A stretch of 51,533 bases of DNA from Atribacterota bacterium. Its GTDB lineage: Bacteria; Atribacterota; Phoenicimicrobiia; Phoenicimicrobiales; Phoenicimicrobiaceae. The translations under genes and the position numbers were made by a program. Of this stretch, positions 875 through 38,450 are shown piece after piece (position 1 is the stretch's first letter; each line of letters starts with the position of its first letter). The notes under the pieces are model-generated. The model was not told where the DNA came from and did no database searches. It saw nothing but the letters and a program-made list of their open reading frames with translations. The stretch spans positions 1 to 51,533 of the forward strand of contig JBBRDV010000004.1 of assembly GCA_038203565.1 (NCBI GenBank), read 5' to 3'.

Positions 875-1405
875 ATGGAAAAAACACTGGTGTTAATAAA
901 GCCCGATGCATTTAAAAGAGGCCTGGTTGGGGAAATTATTTCGAGATTTGAAAGAGTGGGACTAAGTCTGGAAGAAATGAAAATAGTAAATGCTTCTACT
1001 GAAATTGTTAGACAACACTATCCTGATGATAAAAATTGGATTAGATCTGTTGGTAAAAAGACCGTAGATACTTATCAAAAATATAATTTAAATATCGCAG
1101 AGGATTTAGGGACCGATGATGCCCTGGAAGTTGGTAAACTGGTTAGAAAATGGTTGATTCAGCAAATAATTTCAGGACCAATAATTGCAATTATCTTAAG
1201 CGGAAACCATGCTATTGAAGTTGTAAGAAAATTAGTGGGGAATACGGTTCCTCTTTTTGCGGAATTGGGTACCATAAGGGGTGATTTTTCGATTGATTCA
1301 CCCGACCTTTCTACTAAGGAAAAGCGAGCTTTACAGAATTTGGTTCATGCCTCGTCAACCATTGAGGAAGCGAGACGAGAAATTTCTCTTTGGTTTGCAA
1401 TTTGA
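875..1405 (+). CDS. ndk: Nucleoside-diphosphate kinase (with internal insert)
   Basis: TLVLIKPDA, GTIRGDF and NLVHAS (catalytic His) motifs. Confidence 0.93.
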   Translation: MEKTLVLIKPDAFKRGLVGEIISRFERVGLSLEEMKIVNASTEIVRQHYPDDKNWIRSVGKKTVDTYQKYNLNIAEDLGTDDALEVGKLVRKWLIQQIISGPIIAIILSGNHAIEVVRKLVGNTVPLFAELGTIRGDFSIDSPDLSTKEKRALQNLVHASSTIEEARREISLWFAI

Positions 1406-1517: not shown

Positions 1518-4500
1518 ATGAATAAAACTATGGTCAGAGAATTATATAACAAAATATCTAAAAAGATTTTACACACACAAATATTAGATGATATCTCTTT
1601 AGATAAAGAGTTTATTAGAAAATATATTGAAGATCCTCTATTTTTAAAACAATTGTCATCTATGGTAAAAAAGAAAGATTATAGCTGTCAGGCAGTATAT
1701 TTTTTATGTCAGTATATCCTTGTCGATATAGACAAAAAACATAATTCTACTCATTGGCTTTATCAGGTATTTCAGTTTGCCCTCTCTAAATCTTTCCCTG
1801 AAGCAGTAGATCTATCTGTTAAAGATACTTCCGATAATTGCCGAAAAGCTTTCTTACTTTATTTAGAATTTTTAAGAGTAATTTCGAAGTTCCAAAAGTC
1901 GTCCGGTGATCCAACTTTTCACGGCAAATATCCCCTTAATTTTTTAACTTCTGAAGAAAGCAACAAACTGGAAAATCCTGTTGAATATAAAAGATTTTTA
2001 AAAGCATTTAATGACGAGTATATCTATGAGATGATGAGATTAAACCAAGAAATTTCAAAATATAATACTTTAGACCATATATGCGGTGTGAACTGGATTG
2101 CCTTATTTGTAGGCAGGCAGTTACATGATCTGGGTCTTCCTGTTGATTTGGGGAGGATTTCCGGAGCAGCAGCAGGACATGATATCGGAAAATATGGATG
2201 CAAGGATATCGAGGTAGAAAGGACTCCCTATTTACATTATTACTATACTGATAGGTGGTTTGAAAAACATAATATCCCTTATGTCGGACATATTGCTGTT
2301 AATCATTCTGTTTGGGATTTAGAATTAGAAAATTTACCCTTAGAATCACTTATATTAATTTATGCTGATTTTCGGGTTAAAAATGCGAATAACGGTCTCA
2401 AAGAGGAGATGAGGATCTTTAGTTTAAAAGATTCTTTTCAAGTAATTTTAGGGAAACTGGATAATATTGATAAGAATAAAAGAAAAAGATATTGCCGGGT
2501 TTATGAGAAATTAAAAGACTTTGAAGATTATATGATAAATTTAGGGGTAAATGTAGATATAGAGAATAAAGAGATAAGTTCTTGTAAAAAAGATAGAAAA
2601 CCATATTATCCTCTCATGCATGGTCAAGAAGTTATCCAAAATATAAAGTTTCTTTCTATAGAACATAATATAGATTTAATGCACGAACTTCGAGATGAAT
2701 CTTCTCTTAATTCACTTTTAGAATTAGGCCGAAGCGAAAAAGATTGGAACAATCTACGGGAATATCTACAAATATTTAATGAATATTCCACCTATTTGAC
2801 TCAAAAACAGAAGATGATTACCTTGAGATATTTATACGAACAATTAACTCATCCGGAAGATGAAATAAGAAGGAGAAGTGCAAAAATTATCGGTTTATTG
2901 ATTGTCAGCTTTGACGAAGATTACCGCAAAGAGATTCCTCAAAATGTTACCCTAAAACCTCCCGCGATTACCAGTGTTAATTTATTGGAAAGATATTTAA
3001 AATATTTTTTACAACCAGATCATAAAAAGATTGCTCTTCATCAATCTCGAATTATTAATAGCACTGAGGATATGATTTCTTCTCTCTTTTCTAACTGTCG
3101 CAATAATCATCAGGTAAGCAATTATAGAAAAAGTATTTTAAATCACTATATAAAAGACCTGTATAGCGATGAAGAAATTCAACTGTGTTTAATAAAAACC
3201 GCCGAATATATATCAATCTGTTCAGAGGAAAAATCTGTAAAGGTATTATTTGATTATATTATAAAGATGTTACAGAAAGATAATCACAATCTTAGACTTA
3301 CTGCTTTAGAGGTAGTCTATGATTTAATACCACAAATTGATAAAAAATTTGTATTTATAAATAACTTAAGAAAATTATTTGCTTGTAATATTTCTGCTTC
3401 GGTGCTCCCTGCTGAAAATTATTTAAATATGAAGATAGTTGAATTATTAGGTTTGGATAAAAGCATTGTAAAAAGGTACATCGAATTTTATCGAAGAGAT
3501 ATAGAAAAGATACAGTATATATTTCTAAGCAACCTTAAAACTTCGACCAGTGGAATAATCAAAAAAATTCAGATAGAACTTTTATTAGAACATACCTTAA
3601 AGAGCAAGCAGGAAGAAATCTATACCGCTTTGCATTTTTGCAATATTTTAAAAGTTAGCGGCATAGAAGATATTAGAAATTTGGCTGGTAAAGCCTTGGT
3701 AAATTTAATGCCTTCCTTATCTTTTCAACAGAGGAACGATATAGCCATTGAATTGCTACGGGCTTTAGAAATGGAAGATTATCAATTTACTAAATATATT
3801 CCTTACTATTTGGGTCAATTGATACTCTATCTTACACCTAATGAGTTAGAGGAACTTGTTGATGATTTAATAGAAAAAATCAAACAGTCAGACCCCAAAT
3901 TAAGCTCATTACTGCTTAGGACCGTGGGTATCGCCATCGCTAATTACCCTAAATACCGAGAAAGATTTTCAGAAAAAGAGAGATCATTCGAAAACAGACT
4001 TAGCAAGATGATAGGTATTCTTTTGAATGGTTTTGTGCACTATAATTTAAAGGTTAAACAGGCTGCATTTAGAGTGATCGGTAAGGAAATATTTGGCTCA
4101 AGACATCTTAACTTGGAAGAGAAAAACCACATATTTCAACTTATTGTTAAAAAAATTCTTACTCTGTTAACTCCTGTAACTAAAGAAGGTCTGATGTTTT
4201 TAATAAATTGTATCGGGCTTAATTATATGTATAAATTTATCTCTGATTATAATTTTTTCAAAGGGAGCATCAATCTTGAAACCCCAGGCAAAATAGCTTT
4301 CTTCCCAGGAGCTTTTGACCCATTTTCTTTAAGCCACAAAGAAATTGTAAAAGCAATAGAATCACTCGGATTTGAAATATATTTAGCAGTTGATGAATTT
4401 TCCTGGTCTAAAAGGACTCAGCCACACCTCTTCAGAAAGAATATAATAAATATTTCTATTGCCGATGAACTTAATGTATATTTATATCCTGAAGATTTGC

Positions 4501-6443
4501 CGGTTAATATTGCCAATCCAGATGATTTAAAGGCTTTGAGGGAAAATTTTCCCTTTTCCGAGGTTTACATTGTCGTAGGTAATGATGTTATATTAAATGC
4601 TTCTGCTTACCAAAAAAATAAGAGAAAAAATTCCATAGATACTTTTTCTCATATTATTTTTGATAGAAAGATCCCGCATATTACAGATGAGAAAGAAGAA
4701 GAGATTCAAGAAGCTATTAAAGAAATAAAGGGAAAGACGATAAGACTTAACCTTACACCTTGTTATGAAGAAATAAGTTCAACTCAGATAAGAAATAATA
4801 TAGATGAAAATAGAGGCATTTCCAGACTTATCGACCCTTTAGCCCAGAAATATATTTACGAAAACAGTTTATACCAAAGAGAACCACAATACAAGAGTGT
4901 AATACAGACTATCTCTATCGATGTGCAGGTAATTGAAGATATTGCCCCGGATTTAATAAAAGAACTTTGCCAGAAAGTACTTTCTAAATATACTCGAAAC
5001 AAAGCATCTAAAAAATTGCTTGAGTTTACTCGTAAATTAAACCCGAGAATTCTACTATTACGTGATATTCGCCATAATGGAATGATATTGGGTTTTTCAG
5101 CCTTTCATTGGGTTCGTTCAAATATTCTTTTCCAGGAGTTTAAGGATAACTTGATATCTGAGTATATCCGGGATAATGCAGTTGGCCGCACAATAGCTAT
5201 TGATGGTATTTTTACCATAAGTGATATGGAAAATAGATCAGGACTTGAAAACCTTGAGCAGGTTATTCTTACCGAAACTCTTTCTTTTTGCATAGAGAAA
5301 GATTACAGTTACACGATATTTAGGAATATATTAAATGATTATACTTTACCTTCTTTAAACGAGAACTTAGAACTTATGGGGTTTTATCGCTTGCCTTTCA
5401 GCGATAAAGATAATCCGGTATTTGTAGTGGATATGAGTAAACCCTGTATAGTCAATCTGGATACCGAGACAATTATAAAAGAACCATTCTGCCAAAATTT
5501 ATACATTAAAAAATCAGTTATAATATCTCGTAAACGATTATTAAAATCGTTTACTACTTTTTATCCCGGGAATGTTGTTTTACCATTTAATATAGATTTA
5601 ATCAATCAAACTATTGTGAAGAAAATTTGCAGTATAAATGATGTTTCGACAACGCCGTTAATCCCTCGAGCTTTAGGAGGGTCAATGTGTGTGCCCTTCG
5701 GAAAGATACTACATAAGATGGTAGTCCCCAACACGGTAACTAAATCTCTCCATACGGAAAAAATATTTGTTTCTGATATGAAAGGTTTTGAAATTGATGC
5801 CTTCCCTCATTATATGAGTTTGGAAAATCAGGTTAAAATAATTCATTCATTTGATATGCCCGTAATTCTTATTGATGACTATTTGCATAAAGGTTATAGA
5901 ATAAAGACCCTTGAGCCCCTGTTTAAAAAATATGATATTAAAATTAAAAAAATAATTGTGGGAGCACTATCTGGTAGTGGAAAAGAGATAGCAACTGTAT
6001 TAAATAGAGATGTTGATTGCGCCCATTTTATTCCCAATCTTAGATTATGGTTTAATGAGAGTGAATTGTATCCCTTTATTGGCGGAGACGCATTAAGGAG
6101 AAAAATAAGGACTCAGGGAAACTTAGTTAGATCTATTAATCAGATACTACCCTATACTTTCCCTTCATTTATTAAAAATATTTCTGCAAAAACTATCTAT
6201 AATTTTTCCGAAATTTGTATTGAAAATGCCTTAACTATATTAGAAGCTCTGGAAAATGAATACCAGGTAATTCAACAAAGAAAATTAACTCTTGACCATT
6301 TAGGAGAAGTAATTATTTATCCCCGATATCCTGACCAAGGAGAAGATATGGAGTATAAATTAAATCTTAGTCCTTCTCATTATTTAGGAAATAGCCTTGA
6401 ACTTTTACGGCGTACCAAAGGGATTGCAGACAGGGGAAAGTAA
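1518..6443 (+). CDS. Uncharacterised 1641-aa multidomain protein: HD phosphohydrolase, helical HEAT-like region, cytidylyltransferase/NadD-like domain, GNAT-like region, PRTase-like domain
   Basis: HD motifs H187, HD221-222, YAD284. FFPGAFDPFSLSH at ~aa 928 and ISSTQIR at ~aa 1086 (NadD-like). VILIDDYLHKG at ~aa 1450 (PRPP-loop-like). Confidence 0.75.
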   Translation: MNKTMVRELYNKISKKILHTQILDDISLDKEFIRKYIEDPLFLKQLSSMVKKKDYSCQAVYFLCQYILVDIDKKHNSTHWLYQVFQFALSKSFPEAVDLSVKDTSDNCRKAFLLYLEFLRVISKFQKSSGDPTFHGKYPLNFLTSEESNKLENPVEYKRFLKAFNDEYIYEMMRLNQEISKYNTLDHICGVNWIALFVGRQLHDLGLPVDLGRISGAAAGHDIGKYGCKDIEVERTPYLHYYYTDRWFEKHNIPYVGHIAVNHSVWDLELENLPLESLILIYADFRVKNANNGLKEEMRIFSLKDSFQVILGKLDNIDKNKRKRYCRVYEKLKDFEDYMINLGVNVDIENKEISSCKKDRKPYYPLMHGQEVIQNIKFLSIEHNIDLMHELRDESSLNSLLELGRSEKDWNNLREYLQIFNEYSTYLTQKQKMITLRYLYEQLTHPEDEIRRRSAKIIGLLIVSFDEDYRKEIPQNVTLKPPAITSVNLLERYLKYFLQPDHKKIALHQSRIINSTEDMISSLFSNCRNNHQVSNYRKSILNHYIKDLYSDEEIQLCLIKTAEYISICSEEKSVKVLFDYIIKMLQKDNHNLRLTALEVVYDLIPQIDKKFVFINNLRKLFACNISASVLPAENYLNMKIVELLGLDKSIVKRYIEFYRRDIEKIQYIFLSNLKTSTSGIIKKIQIELLLEHTLKSKQEEIYTALHFCNILKVSGIEDIRNLAGKALVNLMPSLSFQQRNDIAIELLRALEMEDYQFTKYIPYYLGQLILYLTPNELEELVDDLIEKIKQSDPKLSSLLLRTVGIAIANYPKYRERFSEKERSFENRLSKMIGILLNGFVHYNLKVKQAAFRVIGKEIFGSRHLNLEEKNHIFQLIVKKILTLLTPVTKEGLMFLINCIGLNYMYKFISDYNFFKGSINLETPGKIAFFPGAFDPFSLSHKEIVKAIESLGFEIYLAVDEFSWSKRTQPHLFRKNIINISIADELNVYLYPEDLPVNIANPDDLKALRENFPFSEVYIVVGNDVILNASAYQKNKRKNSIDTFSHIIFDRKIPHITDEKEEEIQEAIKEIKGKTIRLNLTPCYEEISSTQIRNNIDENRGISRLIDPLAQKYIYENSLYQREPQYKSVIQTISIDVQVIEDIAPDLIKELCQKVLSKYTRNKASKKLLEFTRKLNPRILLLRDIRHNGMILGFSAFHWVRSNILFQEFKDNLISEYIRDNAVGRTIAIDGIFTISDMENRSGLENLEQVILTETLSFCIEKDYSYTIFRNILNDYTLPSLNENLELMGFYRLPFSDKDNPVFVVDMSKPCIVNLDTETIIKEPFCQNLYIKKSVIISRKRLLKSFTTFYPGNVVLPFNIDLINQTIVKKICSINDVSTTPLIPRALGGSMCVPFGKILHKMVVPNTVTKSLHTEKIFVSDMKGFEIDAFPHYMSLENQVKIIHSFDMPVILIDDYLHKGYRIKTLEPLFKKYDIKIKKIIVGALSGSGKEIATVLNRDVDCAHFIPNLRLWFNESELYPFIGGDALRRKIRTQGNLVRSINQILPYTFPSFIKNISAKTIYNFSEICIENALTILEALENEYQVIQQRKLTLDHLGEVIIYPRYPDQGEDMEYKLNLSPSHYLGNSLELLRRTKGIADRGK

Positions 6444-6468
6444 ATTTTAAATTTAAGAAGGATCTTTA

Positions 6469-7713
6469 ATGTTTTTCTATAAAATAAAAGATAAAATACT
6501 AATTTCCCAATCGGAATACAGTGAATTAAATAAAATATCCGAAAGCGAAGCTAAAGAGAGCAAAGAAATAATTTATGTACTTAACCGGATAAACCCCTTA
6601 AAATCCAGAAGATATTTTAGTATTACTGATCCATCCCTAATCTTTTTAAAAGAAGAGGGTATCCACCTACTTCAAAAATCTAAAAAGATTGATTATGATT
6701 TACCTCTATGGCTTAATGAAAGAATAAAAGAAAAAAAAGTGAGTTCACTTAATACCGAATATCCTAACTGGCAAGATGTGTTAACTTATAAATTTCCTTC
6801 CCGGTGGAAAGTTAATATTGTAGGCTTGGGTGATGTAGGAGGGGTTCTCCTTAGCGGTTTGAGATTATTGGCAGGGAACTGTGTTGAATCTATCGGAATA
6901 TATGATAAAAATATAAACGCGATAAAAAGATGGGAATTAGAGGCAAATCAGATATTTTGTCCTTTTACTGCTCAGAAATTTCCTGAGGTTTACCGGTTAA
7001 GAGAAGAGAATATTTTTGATTGTGACCTGTTTGTATTTTGTGCAACTATAGGAGTTCCTTCTTTGGAAGAAAAACAAGAAGATGTGAGAATGAAGCAGTT
7101 CAAAGGAAATTCTAAGATAATTTCTGATTATGCCCGAAAAGCCCGGGAAAAATCGTTTAAGGGGATATTTGCAATTATCTCAGACCCGGTAGACTTATTG
7201 TGCAAAGTTGTTTTTCTGGACGGTAATAAAAATACCAGCGGAGAGTTTGATTTTAAAGGAATAGCAGCAGACCAGATAAGAGGTTATGGATTAGGGGTGA
7301 TGCATGCCCGGGCAGTCTATTATTCAAAACAAAATACTGAAACTGTTAAATATAATCGAGAAGGCAGAGCCTTTGGCCCTCATGGTCAGGGTTTGGTAAT
7401 TGTCAACAGCTTTAAAAAATATGACGAAAGTCTTTCAAAGGTGCTCACCGATCAAACTGTAAAAGCAAACTTAGAAGTAAGGAAGACCGATTTTAAACCT
7501 TATGTAGCCCCTGCCTTATCTTCCGGGAGCTATCCCCTTATTGCCACCATGAGCGGGAAATGGCATTACAGTGCAACCTTTATGGGAGGGGTATTTATGG
7601 GAGCGAAAAATAGATTGCTTAAATCAGGAACTGAAATTGAAAGATTAGACCTTCCGATTAACTTAATAGAGAAAATTAAAGAAAGTTATAAGGATTTGGG
7701 CAATAGCTTATAA
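6469..7713 (+). CDS. Lactate/malate dehydrogenase-fold NAD-binding protein with N-terminal extension
   Basis: VNIVGLGDVGG Rossmann motif at ~aa 115, ISDPVD (NPVD-like) and GPHG (GEHG-like). Confidence 0.75.
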   Translation: MFFYKIKDKILISQSEYSELNKISESEAKESKEIIYVLNRINPLKSRRYFSITDPSLIFLKEEGIHLLQKSKKIDYDLPLWLNERIKEKKVSSLNTEYPNWQDVLTYKFPSRWKVNIVGLGDVGGVLLSGLRLLAGNCVESIGIYDKNINAIKRWELEANQIFCPFTAQKFPEVYRLREENIFDCDLFVFCATIGVPSLEEKQEDVRMKQFKGNSKIISDYARKAREKSFKGIFAIISDPVDLLCKVVFLDGNKNTSGEFDFKGIAADQIRGYGLGVMHARAVYYSKQNTETVKYNREGRAFGPHGQGLVIVNSFKKYDESLSKVLTDQTVKANLEVRKTDFKPYVAPALSSGSYPLIATMSGKWHYSATFMGGVFMGAKNRLLKSGTEIERLDLPINLIEKIKESYKDLGNSL

Positions 7714-7741
7714 ACAATATCTCGATAGAGGGAATTATTTT

Positions 7742-8794
7742 ATGGAAAATATTTTTTTGATTATGACGGGGAAAATATCGGATAGTTTTGCTGAGATGGT
7801 CAAAATAGCCACAGAAAATTGTCAATTAACCATTATAAAGAACATTAAGGATTTTCCTATTGATTTAAGAAATAAAAAGATTATATTTGCTATTGAATTA
7901 GATGAATGCGGATTTAATATTCCTCTATTTGAAATGCTTTTAAAATTAAAGGAAAGAGGAGATGATTCCCTTTTAGATTCAAGAGCCGTAATTATTATTC
8001 AAAGCTCGAGTGAGTTATTTACCAAGAGCACTGCTCAAAAGATAGTTTTTTTAACCAATCAGATGGGATGTAGATTTCCCGGTCATCCAGCTGTAGAAGC
8101 CACTCATAATCTTGATAATTTTCTTACCTGGCAAAAAACATATAACCTGCCTCTTGTAGAGATTTACCAAGAACAGGCTAAAGAATTAGTAGAAAAATTA
8201 AGGGAGGAGAACTTAAAATTAATTAATAGACCGAAGATACTTGTACTGCATTCGAGTTTGTTTAATACATCCAATACTCTTATGCTTTGGAAAATGGTAA
8301 AAGAAAGCCTTGGCGAAGAAGATATAAGAGAATTCCACGTAGAAAATGGAACCGTGGTAGACTGCAGGGGGTGTTCTTATAAAACCTGCATTCATAATAG
8401 TGAAGAAAAAAGCTGTTTTTATGGGGGGATTATGGTAAAAGAAATTCTTCCCGCAATAGAAGGGGCTGATTGCATAATCTGGCTATGCCCCAATTATAAT
8501 GATGCAATATCCGCAAAACTTATGGCAGTTATTAACAGAATGACTGTGCTTTATAAGAGGGTGGAATTTGGGGATAAAACTCTATTTTCCATTGTTGTTT
8601 CAGGAAATTCAGGGAGTGATTGTGTGGCTAAACAGTTAATAGGGGCTTTAAATATTAACAAAGGATTCAGACTGCCTCCTTACTTTACTTTAACAGCTAC
8701 TGCCAATGACCCAGGGTCAATAATGAATGTCTTGGGGATAGATCAAAAAGCAAAAAAATTTGCTGAAAACATAAAAAGAGAAATCAAAAAATAA
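7742..8794 (+). CDS. Tandem flavodoxin-fold / iron-sulfur flavoprotein-like protein
   Basis: Two flavodoxin-like halves. The C-terminal half has ILVLHSS...SNT, the Cys cluster CRGCSYKTC...C and ADCIIWLCPNY. Confidence 0.7.
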   Translation: MENIFLIMTGKISDSFAEMVKIATENCQLTIIKNIKDFPIDLRNKKIIFAIELDECGFNIPLFEMLLKLKERGDDSLLDSRAVIIIQSSSELFTKSTAQKIVFLTNQMGCRFPGHPAVEATHNLDNFLTWQKTYNLPLVEIYQEQAKELVEKLREENLKLINRPKILVLHSSLFNTSNTLMLWKMVKESLGEEDIREFHVENGTVVDCRGCSYKTCIHNSEEKSCFYGGIMVKEILPAIEGADCIIWLCPNYNDAISAKLMAVINRMTVLYKRVEFGDKTLFSIVVSGNSGSDCVAKQLIGALNINKGFRLPPYFTLTATANDPGSIMNVLGIDQKAKKFAENIKREIKK

Positions 8795-8817: not shown

Positions 8818-9846
8818 ATGCAAAAAAGAGATATTAAAAATTTTACCTTAAATGAACTTCAAGAAGAGGTTAAAAATTTAGGGGCTGAAAAATATAGAGC
8901 AACTCAATTATTTGATTTTCTTTACAAAAAAGGCATGGAAGACTTCAAGGATATGCTTAGTCTTCCAACATCATTTAGAGATTTACTTCAAAAATATTTT
9001 TACATAAGTAAGATAGGGTTGGAAAATTTAGCTAAATCAAAAGATCAAACCGAAAAATATTTATTTAAGTTAGAAGATGGAAATTTAATAGAAAGTGTTC
9101 TTATATTTTCTAGTAAAAGAGTGACTGAATGTATATCTTCCCAAATTGGTTGTAAGCATAACTGTTTGTTTTGTGAAAGCGGCAAGAAAGGTTTTACCCG
9201 AGACCTTACAGTTAGCGAGATTTTAAATCAAGTTTTATTTGTAAAGAAAAAAATTGAATCTAATCTCAATAATATTGTATTTATGGGGATTGGCGAGCCT
9301 TTAGATAATTATGGTAATGTGGCAAAAGCCATTTGTATATTGAATTCTAAAGATGCTCTCAATATTGGAGCAAGAAGGATTACCATTTCTACCTGTGGAG
9401 TGATACCGGCTATAAAAAGGTTACAAGAACGTAATTGGCAAATAGAGTTATCAGTTTCTCTGCATGCTCCGGAAAATAAATTAAGGTCTTATCTAATGCC
9501 GGTAAATAATATGTACCCCTTACCCGATCTGATAGAAGCATGCAAGAATTATGCGGAAAAAACTAAAAGGCAAATTACTTTTGAATATATTTTAATTAAA
9601 GGAGTGAATGATTCACTAAATTATGCAGATAAATTAGCAAAACTGATTGGTGGATTTAATTCTAAAGTAAATTTAATTACCTTTAATCCTGCGCCCGATT
9701 CCTTACTGCAGGCACCCGGTATTTCTCAAGTCAAATCCTTTAAAAATAAGCTGGCAGCCAGTGGAATTCCAACCACTATAAGAATATCAAAAGGTGATGA
9801 TATCTCTGCTGCCTGTGGACAGCTAAAGAGCCTGCATCTTAAATAA
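8818..9846 (+). CDS. rlmN: Dual-specificity RNA methyltransferase RlmN (radical SAM)
   Basis: CISSQIGCKHNCLFC, MGIGEP and AACGQL motifs. Confidence 0.93.
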   Translation: MQKRDIKNFTLNELQEEVKNLGAEKYRATQLFDFLYKKGMEDFKDMLSLPTSFRDLLQKYFYISKIGLENLAKSKDQTEKYLFKLEDGNLIESVLIFSSKRVTECISSQIGCKHNCLFCESGKKGFTRDLTVSEILNQVLFVKKKIESNLNNIVFMGIGEPLDNYGNVAKAICILNSKDALNIGARRITISTCGVIPAIKRLQERNWQIELSVSLHAPENKLRSYLMPVNNMYPLPDLIEACKNYAEKTKRQITFEYILIKGVNDSLNYADKLAKLIGGFNSKVNLITFNPAPDSLLQAPGISQVKSFKNKLAASGIPTTIRISKGDDISAACGQLKSLHLK

Positions 9847-9852
9847 GCTAAA

Positions 9853-9875
9853 AGGGCGTATGCAATACGCCCTAC
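9853..9875 (-). repeat. GTAG-type REP palindrome; may double as a terminator on the + strand
   Basis: AGGGCGTAT-GCA-ATACGCCCT-AC, which reads GTAGGGCGTATTGCATACGCCCT on the - strand. Followed by a T-rich tract. Confidence 0.6.
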
Positions 9876-10068: not shown

Positions 10069-10144
10069 GGGCCCATAGCTCAGCTGGCAGAGCAACCGGC
10101 TCATAACCGGTCGGTCCCTGGTTCGAATCCAGGTGGGCCCACCA
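10069..10144 (+). tRNA. tRNA-Ile2 (CAU, lysidine type)
   Basis: 76-nt cloverleaf with GGGCCCA/TGGGCCC acceptor stem, anticodon loop CTCATAA, GGTTCGAATCC T-arm and encoded CCA. G1-C72 is paired and C4-G69/C5-G68 are present, which fits Ile2 rather than fMet. Confidence 0.9.
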
Positions 10145-11092: not shown

Positions 11093-11566
11093 TTTGATAA
11101 GTAGATCAGGTAATCGCGGAAGAAATGCTATTTCTTTCGAGGAAAGTCCGAGCTCCACAGGGCAGAGTGCTGGGTAACCCCCAGTGAGGGTAACCTTAAG
11201 GAAAGTGCTACAGAAAATACACAGCTGGGCACTCAATTTTGAGTACTCGGTAAAGGTGAAAAGGCAGGGTAAGAGCCTACCAGTTGTTAGGTGACTAATA
11301 AGCTTAGTAAACCCCACTCGGAGCAAGACCAAATAGGAAGAGCTGTGGTGGCCCGCTGAATCTTCGGGTAGGTCGCTAGAGGTGTAAGGTAACTTACATC
11401 CCAGATAGATGATTACCACCCTTATAATTAACTCGTTAGTTAGTTAGTTAGTTACTTAGTTAATTGGTTTAGCATTAAACCAGCTAACTAATTTGCATTT
11501 TGTATTTTTCACTAACGACTATTTTATAAGGGGACAGAACTCGGCTTATACGATCTGCTTATCAAA
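11093..11566 (+). ncRNA. rnpB: RNase P RNA, bacterial type A, with enlarged P19
   Basis: GAGGAAAGTCCGAGCTC, GGAAAGTGCTACAGAAA, AAACCCC...GAGCAAGACCAAATAG and ACAGAACTCGGCTTA. P1 is TTTGATAAGTAGATC paired with GATCTGCTTATCAAA. Confidence 0.96.
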
Positions 11567-31919: not shown

Positions 31920-32747
31920 TTGAACCAGGATTTTGAATTAAAAGAACTTGGACAAATAAAATATTTCAACTGTAGTGGATTGGACAACACCAACTTAGTA
32001 ATAAATGCTTTTACTGCTCGAACGGGTGGGGTAAGCAGAACCCCCTTTGACAACCTTAATTTATCCTATAATGTAGGCGATGAAGAAAACTGCGTAGCAG
32101 AAAACAGAAAAATAATTTTAGATGCTTTAAGCATTGATTATCGAACCGCGGTTACTGCCCAGCAAGTCCACAAAGATAAAATAAGCTTAGTAAGAAAAGA
32201 AGATAAGGGAAAGGGAGCCTTTAAATATTCCAAGGGAATTGCACAAACCGATGCCTTTATTACAGATACCCCCGGTATACCTCTTATAATGTGTTATGCT
32301 GATTGTGTACCTATTTTTATTTTAGACCCTGTTAAAAAAGCTATTGCCTTGATTCATAGTGGAAGAAAGGGAACAGAATTGGAATTAACCTTAAAAACTT
32401 TGTTTAAGATGGAAAAAATTTTTAAGACCAATCCCCACTCCTGCTTAGCTGCCATTTTTCCCTCCATTGGTCCCTGCTGTTATAACTTTAAAGAGCAAGA
32501 TAAAATTAATGATTATTGGCTAAATGAAGCTAAGTACAATGGTGAACCAATTTCCCTGCAAAATAAGAACGGCAGGAACCTTGATTTAAGAAAAGCAAAC
32601 TATGGGCAATTGATTAAAGGAGGAGTAGAGGAAAAGAATATTTTTGTTAACGAAATTTGTACGGCAGATCATCCTGAACTTTTCTTTTCCTACCGAAGAG
32701 ATAAAGGAAATACCGGCCGTATGGCTGCCATCTTTATGTTAAAGTAA
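31920..32747 (+). CDS. pgeF: Peptidoglycan editing factor PgeF / YfiH family
   Basis: QQVH, YADCVP, HSG, SIGPCCY and FFSYRR...GRM motifs. Confidence 0.92.
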   Translation: MNQDFELKELGQIKYFNCSGLDNTNLVINAFTARTGGVSRTPFDNLNLSYNVGDEENCVAENRKIILDALSIDYRTAVTAQQVHKDKISLVRKEDKGKGAFKYSKGIAQTDAFITDTPGIPLIMCYADCVPIFILDPVKKAIALIHSGRKGTELELTLKTLFKMEKIFKTNPHSCLAAIFPSIGPCCYNFKEQDKINDYWLNEAKYNGEPISLQNKNGRNLDLRKANYGQLIKGGVEEKNIFVNEICTADHPELFFSYRRDKGNTGRMAAIFMLK

Positions 32748-32791
32748 AATTTTAGATTATTACAATCATATTAAAATAACGGGAGGAAGGT

Positions 32792-33097
32792 ATGCGGATA
32801 AATGAGCATCCCATTTTGGAATTTAATCAAAAGGAAAAAATAAAATTCACTTTAGACGGGAAAGAATTAGAAGGCTATAAGGGTGAGCCTATTGCTTCTG
32901 CCCTGGTGGCTGCTGGAATAAAGGTATTAAGCAGAAGCATTAAATATAAACGCCCCAGAGGATTTTTTTGTGCCATAGGAAAATGTTCAGCTTGCCTGAT
33001 GAAAGTAAACGGCGTCCCCAATATCAGAACCTGTGTAACTAAATTGGAAGAGGGAATGAGAGTAGAGACTCAAAAAGGAAAAGGTGATTTCAATTGA
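32792..33097 (+). CDS. 2Fe-2S subunit (sarcosine oxidase alpha N-terminal / HcnA-like)
   Basis: RPRGFFCAIGKCSAC...RTC. Confidence 0.85.
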   Translation: MRINEHPILEFNQKEKIKFTLDGKELEGYKGEPIASALVAAGIKVLSRSIKYKRPRGFFCAIGKCSACLMKVNGVPNIRTCVTKLEEGMRVETQKGKGDFN

Positions 33098-34194
33098 AAA
33101 TAACTGATATAGCCATTATTGGCGGGGGTCCGGCAGGATTATCGGCAGCAATCTATGCTGCTTCCCTGGGGGCAAAAGTAACTCTTGTTGACGATGGTTT
33201 AGAATTAGGCGGACAGTTAATTAAACAAACCCATAAATTTTTTGGTTCCGAAAAACAGTTTGCCGGGATCAGAGGCATAGAAATTGCCGAAAAGATGATA
33301 CAGGATATTAAAGAATATGATGATATTGAGGTAATCGCTAATGCTACAGTCACCGGCTATTATGAAGATGAGGTCATTACCATTGTCCAGGGAGTGAATG
33401 GTGATATATTGAAAAAACTAAAGGCCAAAAGAATTATTATAGCTACCGGGGCCTCAGAGAATATGCTGCCTTTTGTAAACAACGACTTGCCCGGAGTTTA
33501 TGGTGCCGGGGCGGTGCAGACCTTAATGAATCTTTACGGCGTAGTCCCGGGTAATAATATTTTAATGGTCGGGGCAGGCAATATCGGCCTGATTGTGAGC
33601 TATCAGCTCCTGCAAGCCGGGATCAAGGTAGAGGCAATAGTGGAAGCTCTTCCCAAGATAGGCGGATATCTGGTGCATGCCTCCAAGATTAGACGTTTGG
33701 GAATACCTATCTATACTTCTCATACTCTAAAAGAAGTGTACGGTACGGATTGTGTAGAAAGAGCAGTAATTTCTGAAATCAATCGAAATTTTGAATTTAT
33801 TCCAGGGACAGAAAAAGAACTTGAGGTGGATACTATCTGCCTGGCGGTAGGTTTATCTCCACTCTCTGACCTGCTCTGGCAGGCTGGCTGTCAGATGAAA
33901 TATGTTCCTGAGCTTTGCGGCTATGTGGCCTTAAGAGATGATAATATGAAAACTACTAAAGATAAAATCTATATTGCCGGAGATGTAGCCGGTATCGAAG
34001 AGGCCAGCAGTGCCATGTTGGAAGGTCAAATTGCCGGTTTGAATACCGCGGTAAGCTTAGGATATAAATGTGATAATTATCAAGAGCAAGATAAAAAATT
34101 AAAAGTAGAATTAAAAGAATTGAGAGACAACCCTTTAAGTGAAGAGATAAAGAGAGGCATAGAAAAAGCCTTAATAAAGGAGGGGAGGGATTAA
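33094..34194 (+). CDS. FAD/NAD(P)-dependent oxidoreductase (proline dehydrogenase / sarcosine oxidase alpha-like)
   Basis: GGGPAG, GGQL, IATGA, GAGNIG and IAGD motifs. Confidence 0.85.
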   Translation: MKITDIAIIGGGPAGLSAAIYAASLGAKVTLVDDGLELGGQLIKQTHKFFGSEKQFAGIRGIEIAEKMIQDIKEYDDIEVIANATVTGYYEDEVITIVQGVNGDILKKLKAKRIIIATGASENMLPFVNNDLPGVYGAGAVQTLMNLYGVVPGNNILMVGAGNIGLIVSYQLLQAGIKVEAIVEALPKIGGYLVHASKIRRLGIPIYTSHTLKEVYGTDCVERAVISEINRNFEFIPGTEKELEVDTICLAVGLSPLSDLLWQAGCQMKYVPELCGYVALRDDNMKTTKDKIYIAGDVAGIEEASSAMLEGQIAGLNTAVSLGYKCDNYQEQDKKLKVELKELRDNPLSEEIKRGIEKALIKEGRD

Positions 34195-34196
34195 CT

Positions 34197-34694
34197 ATGT
34201 TAGAAAGAACCGGCATACCGACCGATGATGATTTGGAAAAAGTAATTCCGGATAAAAAAAGATTAGCTAAAGGCCCGGTAGTCATCATAGAATGCTTTCA
34301 GAAAATACCCTGCGACCCTTGTGCCGCATCCTGTAAGTTTGGAGCGATAAAACCTTTTAAAGATATAAACGACTTACCTCAGGTCGATTTTGATAAGTGT
34401 ACCGGCTGCGGGATCTGTATCAGTTCCTGCCCCGGTCTGGCCATATTTGTAATAGATATGAATTATTCAGAGGAAAAATCCTTAATCAAGTTACCCCATG
34501 AAATGCTGCCTCTACCGGAAAAAGGAGAAGATGTTTATGCTTTAGACAGAGCAGGTGGTATACTGGGTAAAGCGAAAGTAGTAAGGGTCTTAAAGATTAA
34601 AAACAAAACTAACATAATTTCCCTGGAGGTCCCTAAAAGTATGGCTATGAAAGTAAGAAGCATAAAAGTGGAGGACAAAACCAATGAAAGATGA
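34197..34694 (+). CDS. 4Fe-4S ferredoxin-type subunit
   Basis: C...IPCDPCAASC and CTGCGICISSCP. Confidence 0.85.
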   Translation: MLERTGIPTDDDLEKVIPDKKRLAKGPVVIIECFQKIPCDPCAASCKFGAIKPFKDINDLPQVDFDKCTGCGICISSCPGLAIFVIDMNYSEEKSLIKLPHEMLPLPEKGEDVYALDRAGGILGKAKVVRVLKIKNKTNIISLEVPKSMAMKVRSIKVEDKTNER

Positions 34695-34956
34695 GATCAT
34701 AATTTGCCGATGTGAAGATATCACCTGGGGAGAAATCAGGCAGGTGTTAGAAAAAGGCTATACCACCCTTGATGAGATTAAAAGGATTACCCGGGCGGGA
34801 ATGGGAAGATGCCAGGGTAGCACTTGCCACAGGATTATACTAAGGGAGATCGCTAAGTTTTGTCATAAGAAGATAGAAGAAGTAGCCGTACCAACCTTTA
34901 GACCGCCCGCCAAGCCGGTAAAATTGGGCACTCTGGCAGGGGATGATGATGATTAA
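34684..34956 (+). CDS. BFD-like 2Fe-2S subunit
   Basis: ICRCEDI...GMGRCQGSTC...RPP. Confidence 0.85.
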   Translation: MKDEIIICRCEDITWGEIRQVLEKGYTTLDEIKRITRAGMGRCQGSTCHRIILREIAKFCHKKIEEVAVPTFRPPAKPVKLGTLAGDDDD

Positions 34957-36091
34957 GAAAGCAGATATTGTTATTATTGGTGGAGGGGTAGTTGGCTGCA
35001 GTATCGCTTATAATTTAGCTAAATTGGGAGCTAAAAATATAATATTATTGGAAAAAAATACTCTAGCCAGTGGTGCTACCGGTAGGTGTGCAGCAGGAAT
35101 CAGACAGCAGTTTGGGACTGAGATGAACTGTATCCTGGCTCGGGAGAGTATAAAAATATTCGAGAATTTAAGTCAAGAACTGGATTATGATATCGAACTG
35201 AATCAAGGCGGATATCTTATGCTGGCTTATACCGAAAAAGAAGTTAATCAGTTTAAGAAAAATGTAGCTTTAGAACAATCATTGGGTATTGATGCCAGAT
35301 TCATCACCGTGGAAGAGGCCAAAGAGATTGTACCTCCTTTAAATACGGAAGGGGTATTGGCCGCAACCTTCTGTCCTAGCGATGGTCATGCCAATCCCTT
35401 TAATACAAATTTTGCTTATGCGGAGGCTGCTCAAAGGTTAGGAGTAAAGATACACAATTTTACTGAAGTAAAAGAAATTAAAACCGAAAATAATAGGATA
35501 GTTTCAGTCAGTACAGACCGGGGAGAAATGCTCACTCCTATTGTAATCAATGCCGCCGGTGGTTATTCGGGAGAAATAGGGAAAATGGCAGGAGTGGAAA
35601 TACCGGTATATTCCCAAAGGCATCAAATTTTAATCACTGAACCGGTTGACCCTCTATTTAAGCCGATGCTGCTGTCCTTCTCTGGTAATTTTTACTGTCA
35701 GCAGACCCCTCACGGGAGTATCATTATGGGCTTTGGTGGCCCCGATGAACCCAAAGGTCACGATATAGGTTCAAGCTGGCAGTTTGCCCGGGAGATGGCT
35801 CAAAAGATGACCGCGGTTGTTCCTTTATTAAAAGAAGTGAGTATGGTAAGACAATGGTCAGGCCTATATAACATGAGCCCTGATTCTCAACCAATCCTAG
35901 GTGAACATCCCCAGGTAAACGGCTTTTATCTGGCAGTAGGTTACAGCGGTCATGGATTTATGCTGGCTCCTGTAGTCAGCCGGCTTATGGCAGAGTTAAT
36001 ACTTAAGGGGCAGACTTCTATTCCCATCGATAAATTAGATATAGGCAGATTTGAACGGGGTGAACTGATTATCGAACCCTCGGTGGTTTAA
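34943..36091 (+). CDS. DAO-family FAD oxidoreductase (sarcosine oxidase beta / dye-linked L-proline dehydrogenase beta-like)
   Basis: IIGGGVVG, SGATGRCAAGIR, SPDSQPILG and GYSGHGFM motifs. Confidence 0.88.
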   Translation: MMMIKKADIVIIGGGVVGCSIAYNLAKLGAKNIILLEKNTLASGATGRCAAGIRQQFGTEMNCILARESIKIFENLSQELDYDIELNQGGYLMLAYTEKEVNQFKKNVALEQSLGIDARFITVEEAKEIVPPLNTEGVLAATFCPSDGHANPFNTNFAYAEAAQRLGVKIHNFTEVKEIKTENNRIVSVSTDRGEMLTPIVINAAGGYSGEIGKMAGVEIPVYSQRHQILITEPVDPLFKPMLLSFSGNFYCQQTPHGSIIMGFGGPDEPKGHDIGSSWQFAREMAQKMTAVVPLLKEVSMVRQWSGLYNMSPDSQPILGEHPQVNGFYLAVGYSGHGFMLAPVVSRLMAELILKGQTSIPIDKLDIGRFERGELIIEPSVV

Positions 36092-36110
36092 AGAAATAAA
36101 GAATAGATAA

Positions 36111-36193
36111 AGGGGTCAGGTCTCAACATTTGACATAACTTGTCCCTAAAAAAATGCTTAGGATGTTATGTCAAATGTTGAGACCTGACCCCT
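36111..36193. mobile_element. 83-bp miniature inverted-repeat element with GGGGTCA ends
   Basis: Perfect 29-bp inverted repeat AGGGGTCAGGTCTCAACATTTGACATAAC with a 25-nt spacer; no coding capacity. Confidence 0.7.
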
Positions 36194-36335
36194 GCTACCG
36201 ATTACAGAAAAAAAGGAGGTGAAGGGATTTATTAAGTAATTGTAGAATAGAAGTTAATTCTAAATGTTATGGCTAGATGATTTACTAAAATAACTGTTTT
36301 TGATTTATTTAAAAAAAATTAAAGGAGAATTAGAA

Positions 36336-37502
36336 ATGAAAAGAATTAAATTATTGTTAGGTTGTAGCGTATTAGTATTAGTACTATGTATATCTTTATT
36401 TGGAGTGATGGCTGCCGATAAGCCGCCGGTGGTCATTGGTCTTCAAGCTCCAATTACTGGTGCAGCAGCAATTGAAGGTGAAATGGCTAAACAATCTGTG
36501 GAGATTGCTGCCCAAATGATCAATGAAAAGGGTGGAATTTTAGGCGGTAGAATGATTGAAATTAGAATTGCAGATGATGCTTGCCAGCCAAAGGCGGGAG
36601 CTTTAGCAGCAATGAAATTAATAACTCAAAAGGATGTAGTTGCTGCCATTCAAACCTACGGTTCCTCTGTCACCCAACCAGGTTCTGATATATATGAAAA
36701 ATTTAAAAAAGTAAATATTGCTTATGGTGCAACGGTTACCGGTCTTACCGAAAGAGGATTAAAGTATTTCTTCCGTACTTGTGGAAGAACCGATACTCAA
36801 GGTGCATTTTTTGCAGATGAAGTCGTACCTCTTTTTAAGGCCAAAAAAATAGCCATTATGCATGATAACCAGACCTTCTCTTTAGGGCTTGCTGAAGATA
36901 CTAAAAAAGCTTTGCAACCTAAGATAGATGCCGGAGAAGTAAAATTAGTCTACTTTGATGCAATTACTCCCGGAGAATCTGATTATACTGTTCCTCTGAC
37001 TAAATTAAGAGAAACCAATCCGGATATATTCTATTTTACCGGCTATTTCCCGGAAGCAGGATTAATAATCAGACAAGCTCGTGATATCGGAATTACGGCA
37101 GTATTTGTAGGCGGAGATGCGGCCATCAATGAAGATTTCATTAATATTGCCGGTTTAGAGTATGCTGCAGGTTGTTATCAAACCCAGGAAGCTTTAATCG
37201 AATATTTTACCAATCCTGAAGCAATGGCATTTAAAGAAGCTTATAAGGCAAAATATAATACTCTTCCATCCAGCCCCTGGTCAGTCTATGCTGCCGATGC
37301 TCTCTGGGTACTTGCAGAAGCTATCGATAAATCTGGTTCTACCGATTCAGATGTCATTGCTGATTATCTGAGAAATAAAATGGAGAACTTCCCCAGTATT
37401 ACCGGCCCAATAGGTTTTGATGAAATTGGTGACCGTGTAGGAACCGGAATTAATCTTTATGTAGTAAATGCAGATGGAAGTTTCGGAATTTACGGAAAAT
37501 AA
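36336..37502 (+). CDS. livK: Branched-chain amino acid-type ABC transporter substrate-binding protein
   Basis: Signal peptide, PITG..A..G, INEKGGILG and DDACQP. ATG at 36336 follows AAGGAG. Confidence 0.88.
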   Translation: MKRIKLLLGCSVLVLVLCISLFGVMAADKPPVVIGLQAPITGAAAIEGEMAKQSVEIAAQMINEKGGILGGRMIEIRIADDACQPKAGALAAMKLITQKDVVAAIQTYGSSVTQPGSDIYEKFKKVNIAYGATVTGLTERGLKYFFRTCGRTDTQGAFFADEVVPLFKAKKIAIMHDNQTFSLGLAEDTKKALQPKIDAGEVKLVYFDAITPGESDYTVPLTKLRETNPDIFYFTGYFPEAGLIIRQARDIGITAVFVGGDAAINEDFINIAGLEYAAGCYQTQEALIEYFTNPEAMAFKEAYKAKYNTLPSSPWSVYAADALWVLAEAIDKSGSTDSDVIADYLRNKMENFPSITGPIGFDEIGDRVGTGINLYVVNADGSFGIYGK

Positions 37503-37526
37503 AATAAAACGAGGTAAAATACGAAG

Positions 37527-38438: not shown

Positions 38439-38450
38439 AGGGGCGAAAAT

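Follow-up and report, generated by a model that had tools for sequence, protein, structure and literature searches.

We found that three adjacent genes in the 51,533-nucleotide stretch of Atribacterota DNA that we analysed (the window) form one conserved, self-contained unit, which is inherited and passed between lineages as a whole in anaerobes of several phyla and is probably an unstudied part of nucleotide or cofactor metabolism, because no described pathway matches the conserved trio. The unit occupies window positions 1518-8794 and consists of three open reading frames, all on the + strand, that encode proteins of 1641, 414 and 350 aa (Table 1). The first is a giant protein of five enzyme-like modules: an HD domain, then a solenoid of the HEAT/ARM type, a domain resembling NadD, a GNAT fold and, at the C-terminus, a domain with weak likeness to PRTases. 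It is followed by two redox partners, one related to lactate and malate dehydrogenases (LDH-like) and one with an FMN_red domain (Isf-like). A preliminary description of this DNA had placed the redox genes 25-28 bp apart, and the gaps measure 25 nt between the giant and LDH-like genes and 28 nt between the LDH-like and FMN_red genes, with a purine-rich run ahead of each ATG. The surroundings are chromosomal and ordinary, with ndk on the upstream side, rlmN, a tRNA and RNase P RNA on the downstream side, and even GC.

Table 1. Genes of the trio and modules of the giant protein, in window coordinates.
Feature	Position	Strand	Basis
Giant, gene for 1,641-aa multi-module protein	1518..6443	+	ORF list
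N-terminal helical region, aa 1-149	1518..1964	+	AF2 model all-helical
HD phosphohydrolase domain, aa ~150-345	1965..2552	+	PF01966 in homologues and invariant residues
HEAT/ARM-like alpha-solenoid, aa ~370-915	2625..4262	+	AF2, Foldseek, weak Pfam HEAT
NadD/PPAT-type nucleotidyltransferase domain, aa 921-1123	4278..4886	+	Fold match, profiles
GNAT-fold domain, aa 1131-1308	4908..5441	+	Fold match
C-terminal domain, weakly type-I-PRTase-like, aa 1325-1641	5490..6440	+	PF00156 in homologues
LDH/MDH-family protein, 414 aa, N-terminal extension ~110 aa	6469..7713	+	Ldh_1_N profile
Two-part flavoprotein, 350 aa: N-terminal ~160 aa and FMN_red domain	7742..8794	+	PF03358 profile

Full-length relatives of the giant are present in 34 of the 41 related genomes of the order; 1142 proteins at E<=0.001 were counted among the 8000 candidates scored, and among the 599 pattern-matching stretches listed, on contigs of one genome per species, at least 547 encode a relative. 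Chance is ruled out, since hundreds of genomes conserve the protein over its full length at 41-96% identity, and between phyla the full-length identity is still about 50% (41-57%) among the matches listed. Gene-neighbourhood analysis and phylogenetic profiling, the check proposed in the preliminary description, showed the trio to be conserved across anaerobes: the LDH-like gene lies directly downstream of the giant in 66 of 69 loci, the order of all three genes is intact in 59 of the 64 loci with enough flank, and the three occur in exactly the same 22 genomes of 300 sampled evenly from the Clostridia (7%), always on one contig and with both partner genes single-copy in all 22 carriers. The other 278 have no match to the giant. 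Within the order, none of the three genes was found in 5 of the 41 relatives, including two genomes with completeness of 98% and 90%. Two carrier genomes (G346, G347) and three relatives that have the giant and the LDH-like gene yielded no Isf-like gene, which is therefore not always needed, an observation that counts against the reading preferred below. The named carriers are anaerobes by their record titles and include the cultured strains Geosporobacter subterraneus DSM 17957, Lutispora thermophila DSM 19022, Sedimentibacter saalensis DSM 13558 and Anaerovorax odorimutans DSM 5092. No recurrent fourth gene was seen among the 132 nearest-neighbour ORFs, which carry 129 Pfam families; the most frequent of these is present in 8 ORFs.

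There are signs of transfer of the trio between phyla. In all three FastTree trees the row nearest to the Calditrichales copy is that of a Clostridia locus (L019), and the rows from Atribacterota group as a single starred set, of 7 rows for the giant and of 9 rows for the Isf-like protein. Such transfer, together with a patchy occurrence (7% of the sampled Clostridia) and a large multi-domain protein with nucleotide-enzyme domains, would suit a system of anti-phage defence or conflict acting through the manipulation of NAD or nucleotides, but we regard this as the least probable of the readings considered here. None of the three proteins matched a PADLOC-DB 2.0 model at E<=0.01, the 25 commonest neighbour families include no integrase or transposase, and the genes stand in core-gene surroundings of even GC. 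Moreover, the giant is present in 34 of 41 genomes of the order, the partner genes are single-copy in all 22 sampled carriers, and the 41-57% full-length identity between phyla is unlike that of fast-evolving defence genes.

Neither the full giant nor the trio is covered by any family, structure or model in Pfam, NCBIfam, PADLOC or the PDB sequences, and no paper on either was found in the literature searched, which bears out the earlier statement that no characterised pathway has this composition. Of the outcomes that the same description had named as fatal to its proposal (a known pathway, lack of co-occurrence elsewhere, failed domain calls), none was observed; every one of its domain calls survived profile or fold tests, the PRTase call weakly so. 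The novelty of the trio rests on its absence from these libraries and from the literature searched, as the building blocks themselves are known folds.

The nucleotidyltransferase domain had been called NadD/cytidylyltransferase-like, and this assignment is confirmed by a match to TIGR00482 (E 1.4e-10) and a fold match to M. tuberculosis NadD (Z 17.3, rmsd 2.7, 187 aligned, protein residues 924-1120), with further matches to the fold of PfNaMNAT (Z 16.5), to the Pfam family CTP_transf_like (E 6.1e-5) and, in profile searches, to PDB 3h05, 5llt and 4nah. The nucleotide-binding motifs of NadD go by the names (H/T)xGH and ISSTxxR. The preliminary description was right that HxGH is replaced, by FDPFSLSH (residues 933-940), and that ISSTQIR (residues 1086-1092) is kept, but the altered HxGH is probably no sign of decay: across the family the first motif is S/T-L-S/G-H with H940 invariant, F933, D934, P935, S1088 and R1092 are likewise invariant in the family alignment, and like variants occur in chains aligned with the domain under the titles P. 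falciparum NaMN adenylyltransferase (TYAH), PPAT (TYGH) and VPA0413 (SLGH). The adenylyltransferase of the giant is plausibly active. VPA0413 (PDB 3h05; PRK08887) is the best sequence match of the domain (E 1.6e-9) and shares with it the S-L-G-H form of the first motif and W-x-K at the region that reads 'PPHK' in NadD and FSWSK in the giant. It differs in being a single domain of 177 aa with the PDB molecule name 'uncharacterized protein', on which no paper was found in the literature searched, and the giant scores 29.4 bits against the PRK08887 cut-off of 164, well below family level.

Relatives of the giant are named 'cytidyltransferase' or 'nicotinate-nicotinamide nucleotide adenylyltransferase' in databases, and such labels, with NadD as the best fold match, could be taken to mean that the giant is a NadD with extra domains that serves ordinary NAD synthesis. 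We consider this very improbable. The giant stays far below every NadD equivalog cut-off, with 41.6 bits (46.7 in the own-genome search) against 112.45 for TIGR00482 and lower scores for the other models, it has FSWSK in place of 'PPHK', and 278 of the 300 sampled Clostridia lack it. Elsewhere in the same genome there is a canonical nadD (185.7 bits with TIGR00482) with an adjoining yqeK (151.6 bits), as well as nadC (231 bits) and nadE (268.6 bits). Because the genome has its own nadC, nadD-yqeK and nadE, the trio is not housekeeping NAD synthesis; the module adds to the canonical NAD pathway and replaces no step in it. No pathway hole in the genome calls for the module, which weighs against the reading preferred below.

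The metal site that had been noted in the HD domain (H187, H221-D222, D284) is present in full and invariant in 73 homologues, as are two further candidate metal ligands, H240 and H263. The PF01966 (HD) profile matches 62 of these 73 family members at E<=5, with a best E of 2.8e-7, and the window's own copy reaches E 0.1 and 13.4 bits over residues 185-284, below the gathering cut-off of 22. We tried YqeK as an identity for this domain and rejected it: the giant has no TIGR00488 match at E<=10 in its own genome, where the true yqeK scores 151.6 bits, and hhalign of the family N-terminal profile against the same-genome YqeK gave a probability of 1%. HD excepted, no Pfam family is common to more than 3 of the 73 members, and the helical region of aa 1-149 has no family assigned. 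The roughly 500 aa of helical repeats described earlier are borne out by an AF2 model with helices throughout residues 370-914 (pLDDT 90.1, pTM 0.86), for which the best Foldseek matches are the ARM/HEAT proteins armadillo, TOG, CAND1 and importin (E 6.7e-6 to 1.9e-4, query TM 0.15-0.24). Pfam HEAT matches in this solenoid are weak, and its conservation over ~545 aa is very strong.

The GNAT-like segment, too, proved to have the fold ascribed to it, matching arylalkylamine N-acetyltransferase (4fd4; Z 14.1, rmsd 3.2, 160 aligned, protein residues 1133-1306) and PH1933 (1wwz; Z 13.9, rmsd 2.7, 147 aligned). The usual acyl-CoA pyrophosphate-binding loop of GNAT acetyltransferases, R/Q-x-x-G-x-G/A, is absent from the family consensus as read by eye from the fourth strand to the following helix (...IDGIFxxxxxxxENLEQIILTE...). 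In the C-terminal domain the PRPP-loop-like VILIDDYLHKG that had been pointed out is present at residues 1449-1459, with D1453, D1454, G1459 and R1461 invariant, but homology to PRTases is weak: of the 73 members, 42 have a PF00156 match at E<=5 (best 4.7e-4), the window's own copy has none, and a search of the whole genome with PF00156 at E<=0.01 also missed the giant; comparison by hhalign with six PRTases of the same genome gave a probability of 21.8% (E 9.8e-4); and HPRT 4rqa aligns at the PRPP-loop-like segment with E 0.59. The PRPP loop of PRTases combines a hydrophobic strand, two acidic residues and a small-residue (TG.T) phosphate loop, and after VILIDD the giant reads YLHKGYR where the PRTases of the same genome read ..TGGT. 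When a 762-residue model was searched whole for folds, NadD and GNAT matches took up the top-50 lists. The C-terminal domain has 428 matches at E<=0.001 among 1.84 billion representatives; among the 150 matches listed 79 are at least 1450 aa long, and in the rows of ~1,600 aa the match is the C-terminal end. The missing CoA loop, and a PRTase-like loop with the DD pair but HKGYR in place of TG.T, both weigh against the reading preferred below.

The call of an LDH fold for the second protein was upheld by Ldh_1_N (E 2.7e-7, 31.2 bits against a cut-off of 27) and by profile matches to L-LDH (E 5.7e-10). Like members of the LDH/MDH family it has an NAD-binding domain with a GxGxxG site, in which G121 and G124 are invariant and D146 nearly so, and R207, R281 and H305 fall on the conserved Arg, Arg and His of the LDH alignment. 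In LDH the Arg residues bind substrate and the His is catalytic, with an Asp partner. The window's protein differs from this family in its 110-aa N-terminal extension, in an invariant M278 at the position of the Asp with which the catalytic His of LDH is paired, and in D239 in place of the Asn of S-N-P-V-D. It is far below the L-LDH cut-off (32 bits against 303.55 for TIGR01771), and PF02866 (Ldh_1_C) has no match anywhere in the genome at E<=0.01, the C-terminal half of this protein included. The Met in place of this Asp and the lack of an Ldh_1_C match likewise count against the preferred reading. The third protein, described as an Fe-S flavoprotein, matches PF03358 (FMN_red) well above the cut-off (E 3.5e-19, 69.3 bits against 24, residues 164-317), and C208, C211, C216 and C225, invariant in 64 sequences, are candidate 4Fe-4S ligands. 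With Isf it shares the FMN_red domain, near the start of which four Cys lie close together as they do at the 4Fe-4S site of Isf, and it differs by its N-terminal ~160 aa, which have no assigned family. No NCBIfam model matches the protein, and a single-sequence search found no PDB chain at E<=1.

A major question is then what such an assembly of modules does. The preliminary description had likened the nucleotidyltransferase and HD hydrolase to GlnD, and the giant does share with GlnD the logic of a writer and an HD eraser with appended ligand-binding domains. The fold does not agree, as the transferase of GlnD is of the polymerase-beta type and that of the giant has the NadD/PPAT (HIGH-type) fold; in addition GlnD carries ACT domains, and the three Pfam families that the giant matches at E<=1 do not include ACT. 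A closer precedent is the NadD-YqeK fusion, which also joins a NadD-fold adenylyltransferase and an HD phosphohydrolase in one protein, and the published account (PMC9426524) reports that its HD domain hydrolyses NaAD and analogues, i.e. NadD products, and that YqeK so fused proofreads them. The giant differs from this fusion in having its HD domain first, with ~600 aa between the two domains, an HD outside the YqeK family, a transferase below the NadD equivalog cut-off, three further modules, two redox partner genes and a separate true nadD-yqeK pair in the same genome.

Our preferred reading, which we hold tentatively, is that the trio is a specialised small-molecule nucleotide module in which an adenylyltransferase and an HD diphosphatase act on a NAD-like or otherwise adenylylated metabolite and are coupled to redox partners. 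We infer the whole mechanism from folds and motifs. The giant would be a nucleotide enzyme for small molecules, built on a scaffold and with two functions or more. Its NadD/PPAT-type domain, with the ATP-site motifs (S/T-x-S/G-H, ISSTxxR) apparently kept, would adenylylate a phosphorylated acceptor, presumably one other than NaMN because the 'PPHK'-type region reads FSWSK, to give either a NAD-like dinucleotide or an adenylylated metabolite of another kind. The HD domain, with six invariant candidate metal ligands, could cleave such a pyrophosphate link as YqeK does in NadD products; the non-canonical GNAT and PRTase-like modules may bind or deliver the acceptor, its precursor or effectors; and the HEAT-like solenoid would hold the parts together, and perhaps partner proteins too. 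The LDH-like protein, with the Arg, Arg and His suited to 2-oxo or 2-hydroxy acids and its NAD site, and the four-Cys FMN protein would carry out NAD(H)-linked redox steps on the same metabolite as the giant or on its precursor.

A long HEAT-like scaffold with degenerate, sensor-like domains would fit a regulator equally, and the main rival is a GlnD-style regulatory hub, in which the giant would reversibly nucleotidylate a protein target on its scaffold and the HD domain would remove the mark. The degenerate GNAT and PRTase-like domains would then sense metabolites, the NadD-like domain perhaps NAD(H), and modification of the target, possibly the LDH-like protein or the Fe-S flavoprotein, would tune amino-acid or nitrogen metabolism together with redox metabolism. 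The GlnD logic of transferase plus HD, the very strong conservation of the ~545-aa solenoid and the non-canonical GNAT and PRTase-like motifs all favour such a hub, as do nitrogen and amino-acid genes nearby in some lineages (glutamate dehydrogenase in 6 and serine dehydratase in 4 of the 132 nearest-neighbour ORFs, and an ammonium transporter and split glutamate synthase inserted between the giant and LDH-like gene at locus L015). However, these neighbours are rare and lineage-specific, neither ACT nor another classical sensor domain is among the giant's three Pfam families at E<=1, and the NadD/PPAT-fold enzymes known to us act on small molecules rather than proteins, so that we think the hub rather unlikely.

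We judge it unlikely, too, that the module recognises NAD(P)(H)-type dinucleotides that arise in aberrant or damaged form when conditions are strongly reducing, with the LDH-like protein and the Fe-S flavoprotein re-oxidising or reducing them, the HD domain cleaving them and the PRTase-like and NadD-like domains rebuilding them. The anaerobic carriers, the Rossmann NAD site of the LDH-like protein, the coexistence of the module with a complete canonical NAD pathway and the reported proofreading by NadD-fused YqeK are consistent with such damage control, but the HD domain is not YqeK, the searches run revealed no similarity to known NAD(P)HX repair enzymes, and 22 carriers among 300 sampled Clostridia are few for a general repair need. 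About as unlikely, in our estimation, is that the trio makes up a whole compact pathway by which anaerobes produce an undescribed NAD-like dinucleotide cofactor. A head group would there be formed or aromatised by the LDH-like dehydrogenase with the Fe-S flavoprotein, the PRTase-like domain would join it to ribose phosphate, the NadD-like domain would adenylylate the product, the GNAT-like domain would decorate or gate it and the HD domain recycle or proofread it, all on one HEAT-scaffolded protein; the scheme echoes the dehydrogenase-plus-flavoprotein logic of dipicolinate synthase.

Whichever reading applies, anaerobes keep a 1,600-residue, five-module protein and two redox partners under strong constraint, and the compact three-gene unit, present in cultured strains, makes the question of its function directly testable. 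If the trio makes or edits a NAD-like molecule, it would represent a new branch of pyridine-nucleotide biochemistry; if it is a regulator, Clostridia and Atribacterota would prove to possess a new type of nucleotide-based control.

The giant protein and its two redox partners are encoded by a conserved three-gene unit. Eighty loci were fetched from the species collection, and we required a flank of at least 1.4 kb for scoring the LDH-like gene and of at least 2.7 kb for scoring the trio; the LDH-like gene lay directly 3′ of the giant gene in 66 of the 69 loci with the shorter flank, and the complete, ordered trio was present in 59 of the 64 with the longer one. As for the exceptions, locus L015 has a 5.4-kb insert after the giant gene with both partners beyond it, the partner pair of L025 and L034 is located elsewhere in the genome, and in the genomes of L045 and L067 an Isf-like gene was not found at E ≤ 1e-20. 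An even sample of Clostridia around a Clostridium carrier (300 genomes scored, one more unscored) contained all three genes in the identical 22 genomes, each time on one contig, and in two of these carriers (G070 and G238) the gap between the giant and LDH-like genes was 5.4–5.7 kb, similar in size to the L015 insert. Searches of 41 genomes related to the window genome recovered the giant gene in 34, the LDH-like gene in 35 and the Isf-like gene in 30; none of the three genes was found in five of the 41 (76, 98, 90, 86 and 84% complete), and six were discordant for the trio, most of these being fragmented assemblies. Recurrence of the trio beyond the window, which the preliminary description had put forward as a check, is borne out by the 59 ordered loci and the 22 Clostridia, with the reservation that the surveyed genomes are kin and such counts are not independent trials.

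The trio is located in ordinary chromosome rather than in an island. The assembly is 1.97 Mb and 99% complete, the window being its contig C4; GC is even (0.31–0.34) over the first 30 kb, genes for stable RNAs follow the trio (see table), and the nearest protein relatives of the giant carry the source names Atribacteria or Atribacterota. Further along, GC rises to 0.38–0.42 within window positions 32001–40000, relative to 0.31–0.36 in the rest of the window.

Features of the trio locus in the window
Feature	Position	Strand	Location	Basis
ndk	875-1405	+		NDK, E 4e-35
giant, 1,641-aa ORF	1518-6443	+		ORF listing
LDH-like, 414-aa ORF	6469-7713	+		ORF listing
Isf-like, 350-aa ORF	7742-8794	+		ORF listing
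rlmN	8818-9846	+		TIGR00048, E 4e-117
tRNA	10069-10141		downstream of trio	70.9 bits
bacterial RNase P class A RNA, full-length	11098-11565		downstream of trio	285.2 bits

The intergenic gaps from ndk to rlmN are 112, 25, 28 and 23 nt, and the tight spacing originally noted for the redox genes, 25 nt before the LDH-like and 28 nt before the Isf-like gene, is therefore correct. Linkage of the same-strand rlmN gene, 23 nt 3′ of the trio, was seen only in Atribacterota loci (six loci). A hairpin is present 3′ of rlmN at 9853–9873, terminator-like sites being no commoner than in shuffles, and a combined promoter and terminator scan gave counts equal to the shuffled expectation. RNA-library contigs from three studies (X2, X3 and X6) cover parts of all three genes at 90–99% identity, and one of 1,164 nt spans the LDH-like/Isf-like junction; because such libraries can contain DNA and the contigs derive from relatives, they are no proof of transcription.

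The giant was aligned with its family of 73 homologues and folded as two halves, both with high model scores (N-terminal half, 920 aa: pLDDT 90.1, pTM 0.86; C-terminal half, 762 aa: pLDDT 89.1, pTM 0.88). The preliminary description had divided the chain into HD, helical-repeat, NadD-like, GNAT and PRTase modules, and profile or fold matches uphold all of these except the last, which was matched weakly only. Residues ~370–915 form an alpha-solenoid, for which Foldseek ranks ARM/HEAT proteins highest; with the N-terminal model, solely repeat proteins, and no HD chain, were among the matches listed. A PDB profile search with the N-terminal 350 aa returned no match at E ≤ 10. The HD domain (aa ~150–345) is matched by Pfam HD in 62 of the 73 homologues at E ≤ 5 (best E 2.8e-7; E 0.1 for the window copy alone), and H187, H221-D222, H240, H263 and D284 are invariant in the family. 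The metal site H187, H221-D222 and D284, which had looked intact in the single sequence, is thus conserved throughout, and in all there are six invariant candidate ligands. A six-ligand HD pattern is a mark of two-metal HD phosphodiesterases. Identity of the domain with YqeK was rejected by both a family-model search and a profile comparison.

The fold of residues 921–1123 is that of NadD (Z 17.3, rmsd 2.7, 187 aligned). The replacement of HxGH by FDPFSLSH described for this domain is real, with the refinement that the family form is S/T-L-S/G-H and that H940 is invariant; ISSTQIR is likewise retained in the family alignment. At the first-motif position, profile-to-PDB alignments place TYAH in a chain titled P. 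falciparum NaMN adenylyltransferase and TYGH in PPAT, and the best PDB profile match of the domain, VPA0413 (E 1.6e-9), has SLGH. Given these variants, the motif of the giant is compatible with an active nucleotidyltransferase. The stretch that reads PPHK in NadD corresponds to FSWSK in the giant, and NaMN is for this reason probably not the acceptor. A housekeeping NadD was rejected on two counts: the domain falls short of the NadD cut-off (46.7 versus 112.45 bits), and a canonical nadD (185.7 bits), with yqeK (151.6 bits) after it, lies elsewhere in the genome, where nadC and nadE are also present. The trio occurs in addition to this canonical NAD pathway.

The GNAT fold occupies aa 1131–1308 (Z 14.1); inspection of the family alignment by eye found none of the usual CoA-pyrophosphate loop motif there. 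The C-terminal domain (aa 1325–1641) is weakly PRTase-like: PF00156 matches 42 of the 73 homologues at E ≤ 5 (best 4.7e-4), the window copy not being among them, hhalign comparison with six PRTases encoded by the window genome gave a probability of 21.8%, and the VILIDD loop can be aligned with an HPRT at E 0.59. In that PRPP-like loop DD is kept and is followed by HKGYR, versus ..TGGT in the PRTases of the genome itself. A PDB profile search with the domain gave two chance-level matches only, and Foldseek and PDB structure searches with the 762-residue model, in which the C-terminal part was barely sampled, listed NadD/NMNAT/PPAT and GNAT chains only, without a PRTase. The C-terminal profile matches 428 of 1.84 billion representatives at E ≤ 0.001, with no family beyond that of the giant among the matches listed; 79 of the 150 listed are at least 1450 aa, the match sits C-terminally in those of ~1,600 aa, and the shorter ones may be fragments. 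Judged by its profile, then, the C-terminal domain is private to the giant family.

The LDH-like protein has a ~110-aa extension followed by an LDH/MDH NAD domain (Ldh_1_N, 31.2 bits versus 27), its C-terminal half being unmatched by Ldh_1_C. In profile alignments with LDH chains, D-V-R207 corresponds to E-T-R, S-D239-P-V-D to S-N-P-V-D, V-M278-x-A-R281 to L-D-T-A-R and G-P-H305-G to G-E-H-G. Relative to the L-LDH family, both Arg and the His are therefore kept, whereas an invariant Met replaces the Asp that pairs with the His. Since the 99% complete window genome has no Ldh_1_C match at E ≤ 0.01, the LDH-like protein may be its only LDH/MDH-family member. The genome also lacks a NAPRTase match at E ≤ 0.001. 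In six Anaerovoracaceae-type loci or genomes (L081, L087, L088, L089, G193 and G244) the LDH-like match starts only at residue ~95–114 and the frames are 318–337 aa, and the extension seems to be missing there. The Isf-like protein combines a ~160-aa N-terminal part of no assigned family with an FMN_red domain (69.3 bits) in which C208, C211, C216 and C225 are invariant; its family gave a single PDB profile match (E 0.38). A generic Isf has been proposed as a dipicolinate synthase in a bioRxiv preprint, which leaves the Isf-like family of the trio aside (10.1101/803486). A complex prediction for the two partners, run without controls, scored 0.00 and is uninformative on binding.

No consistent fourth gene accompanies the trio: when 953 flank ORFs were clustered, every additional cluster was confined to eight loci or fewer, and among the 132 nearest-neighbour ORFs 129 different Pfam families are represented. 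In the Bacillota locus L015, the insert between the giant and LDH-like genes (L015:12969-18166, ~5.4 kb) carries an opposite-strand gene for an ammonium transporter, and a glutamate synthase split over three genes (GATase_2, Glu_synthase with Fer4, and GXGXG). This insertion, together with glutamate dehydrogenase in 6 and serine dehydratase in 4 of the 132 neighbour ORFs, means that certain lineages have nitrogen or amino-acid genes in the vicinity of the trio, in favor of the main rival, a GlnD-style regulator in which the giant would nucleotidylate a protein held on its solenoid; we consider it unlikely, and still more so a third reading, a role in damage control for pyridine nucleotides. 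A gene for a glutamate/leucine-type dehydrogenase (ELFV_dehydrog) adjoins the trio in seven loci (L019, L021, L073, L081, L087, L088 and L089), where it either follows the trio or precedes it on the opposite strand; this may point to a connection with amino-acid metabolism or simply reflect synteny within a lineage.

In FastTree trees with midpoint root, the Atribacterota giants form one clade (100) among Bacillota, a second Atribacterota family stands apart from the first in the LDH-like tree, and the nearest row to the Calditrichales copy (L021) is the Clostridia locus L019 in all three trees. This pattern fits transfer of the trio as a unit, although the trees show neither a root nor a donor. 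The L021 contig, titled Calditrichales and with the whole trio, may reflect inter-phylum transfer or a binning error. Second giants also occur: a divergent one in G171 (G171:C9:45666-49838; 31% identity over aa 326–1378), one without adjoining partners (L034) in the genome that also holds L029, and a pair both named Crassaminicella thermophila (P0055 and P0100), whose records agree in the length of the longest contig.

What kind of system is this? All three proteins stay below the cut-off of every NCBIfam model, giant relatives have generic source names, the ESM Atlas retrieves solely the trio's own generic clusters, and literature searches found nothing on the giant or the trio. A PADLOC defence system was rejected, as no model matches. 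The components are known folds and the whole corresponds to no described system: a domain of NadD fold in which the nucleotide-site residues are conserved and an HD domain with conserved ligands, accompanied by an LDH-type NAD protein and a four-cysteine FMN protein. Our preferred reading, held tentatively and at somewhat less than even odds, is a small-molecule adenylylation, HD-cleavage and redox module. The NadD-like domain would adenylylate a phosphorylated small molecule and the HD domain would cleave the product, a step modelled on the YqeK domain that is fused to NadD and is reported to cleave NaAD analogues (PMC9426524). The acceptor, or effectors, would be bound or supplied by the GNAT-like and PRTase-like modules, and the LDH-like and Isf-like proteins would oxidise or reduce this compound, or a precursor of it, in NAD(H)-linked reactions.
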